A DNA stretch of 64,000 nucleotides. It comes from Hydrolagus affinis (Eukaryota). How positions within the stretch are numbered: position 1 is the first letter of the stretch; each line of letters starts with the position of its first letter. The position numbers and the translations under genes are program-made. Under the pieces are notes generated by a model, which did not search any database, was not told the DNA's origin, and saw nothing but the letters and a program-made list of their open reading frames with translations. The stretch lies in NCBI GenBank assembly GCA_012026655.1, contig JAAILG010001249.1, positions 1-64,000 on the forward strand. The letters are read 5' to 3'. This document shows positions 4,273 through 5,877 of this stretch, piece after piece.

Positions 4273-4305
4273 TTTTGTCTTTCTCTCTCTCTCTCTCTCT
4301 CTCAG
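4273..4305 (+). promoter_or_regulatory. KCNJ2: 3' splice acceptor of the KCNJ2 coding exon; polypyrimidine tract made of (CT)n
   Basis: ttttgtctttctctctctctctctctctctcAG|G. The exon would start at 4306, ~206 nt before the ATG. This fits the known KCNJ2 architecture of a non-coding first exon plus one coding exon. Confidence 0.75.
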
Positions 4306-4310
4306 GTCAA

Positions 4311-4343
4311 ATGACCGCTTATCTGTGGATGGTTGAGTGTTGA
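4311..4343 (+). promoter_or_regulatory. Upstream ORF (MTAYLWMVEC*) in the KCNJ2 5'UTR
   Basis: ATG 4311 to TGA 4343, with a second ATG at 4329. It lies just inside the predicted exon, in the same frame as the main CDS. Confidence 0.6.
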
Positions 4344-4511
4344 TCTGTAGACGAGAGCCCTGGGTGAAGCCAAGGCCGCCTGCGAAGGTCCACCCTCCCA
4401 TTCGTGGGTGCGTTCGTCCAGCGCGTTCCAAAACTGTTTCTTCAAAGGTTGCTGCGGACACTTTCGAGACTGTATCCCAAAGTAGAAACGCAGCAGTCCC
4501 AGGCGTTGGCA

Positions 4512-5801
4512 ATGGGCAGCGTGCGTGCCAATCGCTACAGCATCGTGTCTTCGGAGGAAGACGGAATGAAGCTGGCCACCATGGCGGTCGCCAACGGTTA
4601 CGGCAACGGCAAGAGCAAGATCCACACGAGGCAGCAGTGCCGGAGCCGGTTTGTCAAGAAGGACGGGCGCTGCAACGTGCAGTTCGTGAACATGAGCGAG
4701 AAAGGGCAGCGCTACCTGTCGGATATCTTCACCACCTGTGTGGACATCCGCTGGCGGTGGATGCTGGTCATCTTCTGCCTCTCGTTCATCCTGTCCTGGC
4801 TCTTGTTCGGCTGCATGTTTTGGCTGATCGCGCTGATGCACGGCGACCTGGAGAAGACGGTGAGCCCGACGGAGCACAAGCCGTGCGTGTCGCAGGTCAA
4901 CAGCTTCACCGCCGCCTTCCTCTTCTCCATCGAGACGCAGACCACCATCGGCTACGGCTTCCGCTGCGTGACCGAGGAGTGCCCCGTGGCCGTCATCACC
5001 GTGGTCTTCCAGTCCATCGTGGGCTGCATCATCGACGCCTTCATCATCGGCGCCGTCATGGCCAAGATGGCCAAGCCCAAGAAGAGGAACGAGACGCTGA
5101 TCTTCAGCGACAACGCCGTGATCGCCATGCGGGACGGCAAGCTCTGCCTCATGTGGCGGGTCGGCAACCTGCGCAAGAGCCACCTGGTGGAGGCCCACGT
5201 GCGGGCGCAGCTGCTGAAGTCACGGGTGACCTCCGAGGGCGAATACATACCCCTGGATCAGATCGACGTCAACGTGGGCTTCGACAGCGGCATCGACCGG
5301 ATATTCCTCGTGTCGCCCATCACCATCGTGCACGAGATCGACGAGGACAGCCCCTTCTTCGACCTGAGCAAGCAGGACCTGGACAACTCGAACTTCGAGA
5401 TCGTGGTCATCCTGGAAGGGATGGTGGAGGCCACGGCCATGACCACCCAGTGCCGGAGCTCGTACCTGGCCAACGAGATCCTCTGGGGCCACCGGTTCGA
5501 GCCCGTGCTCTTCGAGGAGAAGAACTACTACAAGGTGGACTACTCGCGCTTCCACCGGACGTACGACGTGCCCAACACGCCGCTGTGTTGCGCCCGGGAC
5601 TTGGCGGAGAAGAAGTACATCCTCTCCACGGCCAACTCCTTCTGCTACGAGAACGAGGTGGCGCTCATGAACAAAGACGAGGAGGAGAGCGAGGGCGGCT
5701 CGCCGGAGACCGTGAGCGCCGAGGCGGTGCCCGGCACGGACCACAACCAGGCCACAGTTCCCCTGGAGCCCCGGCCGCTCAGGCGGGAGTCCGAGATCTA
5801 A
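4512..5801 (+). CDS. KCNJ2: Inward rectifier potassium channel Kir2.1 (single coding exon, 429 aa)
   Basis: The ATG at 4512 (GCAATGG, good Kozak context) is Met37 of ORF 4404..5801. Motifs: N-terminus [19 protein letters not shown]1 WRWMLVIF, selectivity filter [10 protein letters not shown], rectification Asp in IIDAF, PIP2-binding [10 protein letters not shown]-export FCYENE, and the Kir2.1-type C-terminus [11 protein letters not shown] (PDZ ligand). Confidence 0.97.
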
Positions 5802-5877
5802 GAACAAAGCCGCCTTGAGTCCTTTTTTTTAATTAATGAATCAATCAATTAATTAATTGAAAAAGTATTGGTCAAAC

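Follow-up and report, generated by a model that had tools for sequence, protein, structure and literature searches.

Does the mRNA of KCNJ2 code for a second and longer Kir2.1 protein that begins upstream of the annotated AUG? Heart, muscle and neurons owe their resting potential to Kir2.1, and KCNJ2 is the gene of the Andersen-Tawil and short-QT type 3 syndromes. To our knowledge it has been treated as a single-protein gene, and since the usual cDNA construct starts with the AUG, a long form of Kir2.1 would escape most functional work. The question was raised by a window of 64,000 nucleotides from Hydrolagus affinis (contig JAAILG010001249.1, the whole stretch of DNA analysed here), for which the original prediction had proposed a deeply conserved, CUG-initiated N-terminal extension of the protein resembling a mitochondrial presequence. 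From the comparison of sequences we think it probable that a minor long isoform of Kir2.1 is initiated at the CUG at position 4434 by leaky scanning.

The gene in the window is an ortholog of KCNJ2: the CDS finds its best match in Rhinoraja KCNJ2 (91% identity, versus about 70% with KCNJ12) and is closest to KCNJ2 rather than to KCNJ12, KCNJ4 or KCNJ14. A KCNJ12-like paralog sits on a different contig of the same genome, in which no second copy of the KCNJ2 leader was found. The layout is that expected for KCNJ2 exon 2, an intronless CDS preceded by a leader of about 215 nt, here 206 nt (Table 1); the lengths computed from Table 2 of PMC3277267, within the part of that paper available, are 218 nt in dog, about 235 nt in mouse and 216 nt in chicken. 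The context of the main AUG is strong, with G at both -3 and +4. The CDS has a GC3 of 0.95, and the long alternative and antisense stop-free frames that overlap it (4337-5818 on the plus strand, 493 codons; 4302-5219 and 5220-5828 on the minus strand, 305 and 202 codons) are probably a by-product of this composition. Further along the window, positions 22269-63192 contain nine stop-free frames of 150-183 codons without a larger gene.

Table 1. Features of the KCNJ2 locus in the window (positions within the 64,000 nt)
Feature	Position	Strand	Remarks
Splice acceptor AG after (CT)n tract	4304..4305	+	From sequence; KCNJ2 exon 2 from 4306
In-frame uORF, 10 codons, closed by TGA	4311..4343	+	ATG 4311 and ATG 4329, both without purine at -3
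Last in-frame stop, TGA	4365..4367	+	ATG absent from there to 4512
A-rich initiation context and CTG, likely non-AUG start	4428..4436	+	CAAAACTGTTTCT, identical in teleost locus L013
In-frame N-terminal extension, 26 codons	4434..4511	+	Codons 1-17 conserved, codons 18-26 variable linker
Basic acid-free 16-residue segment	4434..4481	+	Predicted amphipathic helix, ends R-L-Y-P-K
Weak AG, rival acceptor	4446..4447	+	Where several mammalian models join upstream AUG
Second in-frame CTG, A at -3	4470..4472	+	CTG in L013 too
KCNJ2/Kir2.1 CDS	4512..5801	+	Intronless, 429 aa, annotated start ATG 4512-4514

As originally predicted, the KCNJ2 frame is open from 4368 to the ATG at 4512, and overall from 4368 to 5801, with AAA at 4431-4433 followed by CTG at 4434-4436, A at -3, and 78 nt or 26 codons from the CTG to the ATG. 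The stretch is bracketed by a stop and free of AUG. The base at +4 after the CTG is a T, where G would be optimal, and the CTG at 4470-4472 is a possible second near-cognate start, giving an extension of 14 residues. In the genome of the window by itself this open layout does not exceed chance: when the leader was resampled with a Markov model, the 26-codon frame was open in a fraction of 0.42, and open with a CTG carrying a purine at -3 in 0.05. Chance openness accounts for the window alone and fails to explain conservation; it is because the extension is conserved across vertebrates that it is lifted above chance. Initiation of a long form at an upstream AUG was considered as well and is ruled out in Hydrolagus affinis, as the TGA closes both upstream AUGs. 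The L-W-M of this uORF resembles an L-W-M in the mammalian models P0137, P0141 and P0149, and the Q-M-T encoded at the start of exon 2 (4306-4343) matches the catshark model P0238; together the two matches suggest that an upstream AUG, some 105-125 nt 5′ of the CUG, is conserved. The catshark model has an upstream in-frame Met, 61 codons apparently open into the CDS, and no stop.

The stretch is retained in mature mRNA, judging from stranded RNA reads of one run from a close relative rather than from Hydrolagus affinis itself. This run gave 47 reads, all in KCNJ2 orientation, 33 of them at 99% identity or more and 10 under 90%, the latter probably stemming from the KCNJ12 paralog. They span 4296-4900 without gaps, the first falling in the bin 4296-4319, with a depth of 1-5 across the extension, where the only difference of the relative (4505) is synonymous. 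Among three other runs, X13 and X18 produced 0 contigs and X19 one, restricted to the CDS.

Conservation was assessed first of all in protein models. We fetched 417 proteins, 271 of which have a KCNJ2-type N-terminus; 229 begin at the AUG and 42 extend upstream. The whole motif is present in 19 of the 42, its 3′ part in 12, and 11 show no match; this is a biased sample, upstream models being visible only where the frame is open and the 229 AUG-start models being uninformative. The 19 whole-motif models, with extensions of 25-27 residues, include the catshark, cods, Labeo, Channa, Scleropages, Galemys and Pteropus, the last-named genera among those in which the motif of the original prediction is seen in mammals. 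The claim of deep conservation of an in-frame extension therefore stands for cartilaginous fish, teleosts and mammals, three vertebrate classes; none of the extensions seen is from a bird, reptile, amphibian or human. A search at the level of 50% clusters returned 15 matches and added one mammal-like fragment. The 11 models without a match comprise two from mormyrids, the degenerate one of Albula (P0005), four with an ATG three codons upstream and four that retain only the last few residues. The teleost kcnj2b models P0083, P0125, P0380 and P0391 have an additional in-frame ATG, located three codons 5′ of the usual start. When a profile built from bony-vertebrate extensions only was run against 3825 six-frame segments, the teleost-like locus L013 ranked first and the frame of the window second (E=0.03); the same profile finds the catshark at 1e-6.

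Position 1 of the 19 full models is Leu in 14, Val in one and a model-start Met in four, a variation that suggests the CUG/GUG swap typical of non-AUG starts. The Val occurs in P0177, and the models of its close relatives P0068 and P0135 begin at that very codon. If their gene caller accepts ATG, GTG and TTG only, which we assume, the codon at position 1 of P0177 would be GTG, because the two related models begin there. A conversion to AUG in Scleropages, whose model P0018 begins at the position-1 codon, was not counted, a CTG start being sometimes written as Met; the model of the related Arapaima (P0121) does not begin at this codon. F2, L3, Q4 and L12 never vary in a hand-picked set of 11 lineage representatives; positions 6, 7, 10 and 13 carry hydrophobic residues only, positions 6-7 being limited to L, F, V or Y. 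The 14 substitutions in columns 2-17 have a mean BLOSUM62 score of +0.36 versus -0.69 for random single-base changes (p=0.016, in a post hoc test with one reference codon set). A joint p=0.001 for the hydrophobic columns was discounted, the reference being a probably derived Tyr codon.

Comparison at the DNA level is confined to a single pair, the window and L013, which was found via the CDS peptide and is hence unbiased for the extension. The metagenome scan gave two loci, one KCNJ2 (L013) and one KCNJ12-like, and no more leader DNA was found in the genome and viral collections. L013 and L014 are fish-like KCNJ2 and KCNJ12 contigs in a public metagenome assembly, presumably host DNA. CTG and A at -3 are present in both of the two DNA sequences, the remaining species being known as amino acids only; the CTG with its context CAAAACTGTTTCT is identical and the 78-nt spacing equal, while identity falls to 4/12 at -18..-7. 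Of the codons, 11 are identical, 3 synonymous and 11 non-synonymous, and the +1 frame of the extension contains a stop in both sequences. The coding-type synonymous bias that had been expected did not materialize in this one pair: the mismatches are distributed 5/8/9 over the codon positions (third-position excess p=0.29), and pN/pS is 0.27/0.42 in the extension versus 0.08/0.60 at the start of the CDS. Conservation at synonymous sites is, if anything, higher than in the CDS (pS 0.42 vs 0.60; identical codons 11/14 vs 14/25, p=0.19). As far as these alignments tell, constraint at the nucleotide or RNA level is present too, which fits an initiation context and also an RNA element.

Accordingly, what is conserved in the 5′ leader could be an RNA element, a protein-binding site or a structure, with the open frame as its by-product. 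The conserved synonymous sites and the absent third-position bias would be expected of such an element, which we nevertheless regard as unlikely. Two similar ACTGT-containing blocks speak for it, and so does the conservation that reaches 5′ of the CTG, where an H-S-K is common to mammals and teleosts and conservation begins 3-4 codons early; the catshark model agrees with the window from K-L on, not upstream of it. A further point in its favour is that an apparently frameshifted mormyrid copy is still recognisable. The mormyrid paralogs P0089 and P0202 start at a new ATG, read the extension's 5′ half in the +1 frame and then enter the main frame, which gives a 28-residue AUG extension with another sequence. 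The predicted preservation of the frame is thus upheld by the DNA pair, both of whose two indels are 3 nt long, but apparently not by these paralogs. Against an RNA element stand these triplet indels, the preservation of Arg5 through different codons (AGG in one sequence, CGC in the other), the divergence of positions 6-7 among hydrophobic residues only and the alternation of position 1 between Leu, Val and a start. The predicted folds of the window and L013 also differ, 40-nt windows at offsets 12-36 reaching -2 to -6 kcal/mol in the former and -4 to -9 kcal/mol in the latter, and no hairpin about 15 nt 3′ of the CTG is shared by the two (a comparison made with no shuffle control). Alternatively, the last ~21 codons might be read from an upstream AUG via an alternative acceptor within the stretch, the conserved CT-rich sequence being a 3′ splice site. 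Nine mammalian models (Castor, Desmodus, two Myotis, Pipistrellus, two Dipodomys, two Ovis) do join an upstream AUG after F-L-Q, fish models join after F-F-Q, and in the window an AG lies at 4446-4447, where coverage by reads goes up from about 1 to 3. L013, however, has no AG at the equivalent site, the site varies between lineages, codons 1-4, upstream of the acceptor, are the best conserved, and the joining gene models may be ab initio. No splice joint over the KCNJ2 leader was reported among the 47 reads at a threshold of 3 reads, and RT-PCR in dog gave a single product, alternative splicing not being found according to the available part of PMC3277267. We consider such an acceptor very improbable.

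Initiation at the CUG would operate as follows. Scanning ribosomes would pass the weak upstream AUGs or re-initiate after them, a small share would start at the A-rich CUG and most would continue to the strong AUG. A stable hairpin about 15 nt 3′ of the start codon can enhance such initiation, though it is not obligatory; none is shared by the window and L013 at this distance from the CUG (a comparison made with no shuffle control). The predicted product is a Kir2.1 of 455 residues with an additional basic amphipathic helix. Long and normal subunits would co-assemble, so that a long form amounting to a few per cent could touch many tetramers.

What the additional residues might do depends on their character. 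In the window, residues 1-16 contain four K/R and no D/E and have a hydrophobic moment of 1.01 (p=0.001 vs 2000 shuffles). The acid-free nature postulated for this segment extends to 15 of 16 sequences, which have a net charge of +3/+4 and zero acidic residues, but the amphipathicity does not: the moment exceeds shuffles (p at most 0.001) in only two of the 16, both from cartilaginous fish, and is not significant in the 14 bony-vertebrate sequences (p 0.10-0.32). Likewise the R-x-Y motif, a candidate R-2/R-3 processing motif, can be recognised by eye as R-x-[FY]-[SP] in 15/16 sequences, five of the 16 having Pro after the aromatic residue, yet in Scleropages the Arg is a Gly. ARL8 and ARFRP1, substrates of NatC, carry N-terminal amphipathic helices that begin with Met-Phe or Met-Leu. 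The extension may resemble them, in form rather than by demonstrated homology: a short helix with a Met-aromatic start, basic residues, and hydrophobic ones in an i, i+3/4 pattern. It is conceivable, if somewhat short of probable, that the helix acts in mixed tetramers within the secretory pathway as a sorting or membrane-binding signal for an anionic membrane or a trafficking factor and alters export, retention or PIP2-dependent gating. This role is preferred because of the dependence of Kir2.1 on PIP2 and anionic lipid, as stated in the accessible parts of the literature, and because N-terminal motifs already govern its exit from the Golgi (PMC6386995, from the part available). AlphaFold places a helix at residues 2-12 at a pLDDT of about 38 only, the mean of the model being 42, too low for the structure to be of use.

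The original prediction also raised possible targeting to mitochondria. The extension would then be a cleavable presequence that directs long Kir2.1 to the inner membrane, a special case of CUG initiation and the chief alternative to a secretory role, which we find doubtful. The basic, acid-free segment favours this, as does its termination in 15/16 sequences by R-x-[FY]-[SP] with the variable linker next. MCU and CCDC51 combine a presequence with the same two-helix topology. The segment is, however, short and Lys-rich in bony vertebrates, its moment there does not rise above that of shuffles, and the motif Arg is lost in Scleropages. Kir2.1 moreover requires PIP2 and has an ER signal anchor in its TM1, both of which count against a presequence. 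A precedent within the Kir family is ROMK2 (Kir1.1b): its sorting to mitochondria is reportedly determined by the N-terminal isoform, and its first 24 aa import GFP into mitochondria (PMC10052516 and PMC6386995, in their available text). ROMK2 differs in being a short isoform without the N-terminal residues of ROMK1 and without a non-AUG extension, and both its role as mitoKATP and the identity of mitoKATP are disputed in the sources accessible to us. That a long Kir2.1 with a cleavable presequence is initiated at the CUG in all jawed vertebrates, as an inward-rectifier K+ channel of the mitochondrial inner membrane, seems improbable. Were such a form real, it would have been missed because expression constructs begin at the AUG, and if the helix is a presequence it would supply a candidate mitochondrial K+ channel that can be tested directly.

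The extension most likely belongs with the conserved non-AUG extensions already known. Those of Ivanov et al. 2011 (PMC3105428; for example the vertebrate-wide ones of VANGL2, WDR26, C1QL1-4 and YPEL1/2/4) share with KCNJ2, as described in the available part of the paper, a near-cognate codon, a purine at -3, an in-frame upstream stop, the lack of any out-of-frame AUG ahead of the main one and conservation from fish to mammals. In contrast to that set, the Ka/Ks signal of KCNJ2 is weak and comes from one pair, and the translation of its extension is a prediction. KCNJ2 does not appear in the main text or supplement file 2 of this study, in which only KCNN4 was found. The GUG/CUG extension of KCNN4 (KCa3.1) is similar to the KCNJ2 candidate in that it is a short near-cognate extension of a potassium channel with GUG, CUG and AUG varying by species; peptide support is listed for it (PMC11317171), and KCa3.1 is counted among the mitochondrial K+ channels in the portion of the literature available. 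It belongs, however, to an unrelated channel family, and its extension is mammal-only whereas that of KCNJ2 reaches cartilaginous fish.

KCNJ2 is likewise missing from the supplement files searched of Fedorova et al. 2022 (PMC9789052; the controls SFPQ, KCNN4 and KCNQ1 were found) and from Rodriguez et al. 2024 (PMC11317171; controls found), and it was not found in PMC12718117, where no control was run. Its absence from the human PhyloCSF, Ribo-seq and proteomics lists searched is mild evidence against the extension. Fedorova et al. evaluated as many as 50 upstream codons together in a single block and discarded whatever overlapped annotated exons, which could dilute a signal of 17 codons. An Atlas feature search with the extension gave no match, and no description of an extended Kir2.1 was found in the parts of the open-access literature searched, PMC3778269 included. 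If the CUG is indeed used, the coding sequence includes 78 bases now assigned to the 5′ UTR, any variants in them would need to be re-read, and Kir2.1 may form mixed tetramers.

The KCNJ12-type loci L002 and L014 lack the motif in their upstream DNA and score nothing with the extension profile. In several mammals KCNJ12 models (P0094, P0097, P0104, P0056-P0058, P0061) are predicted with an AUG-started extension of 100-130 residues that shows no relation to the KCNJ2 motif; among them the three placental models are mutually similar.
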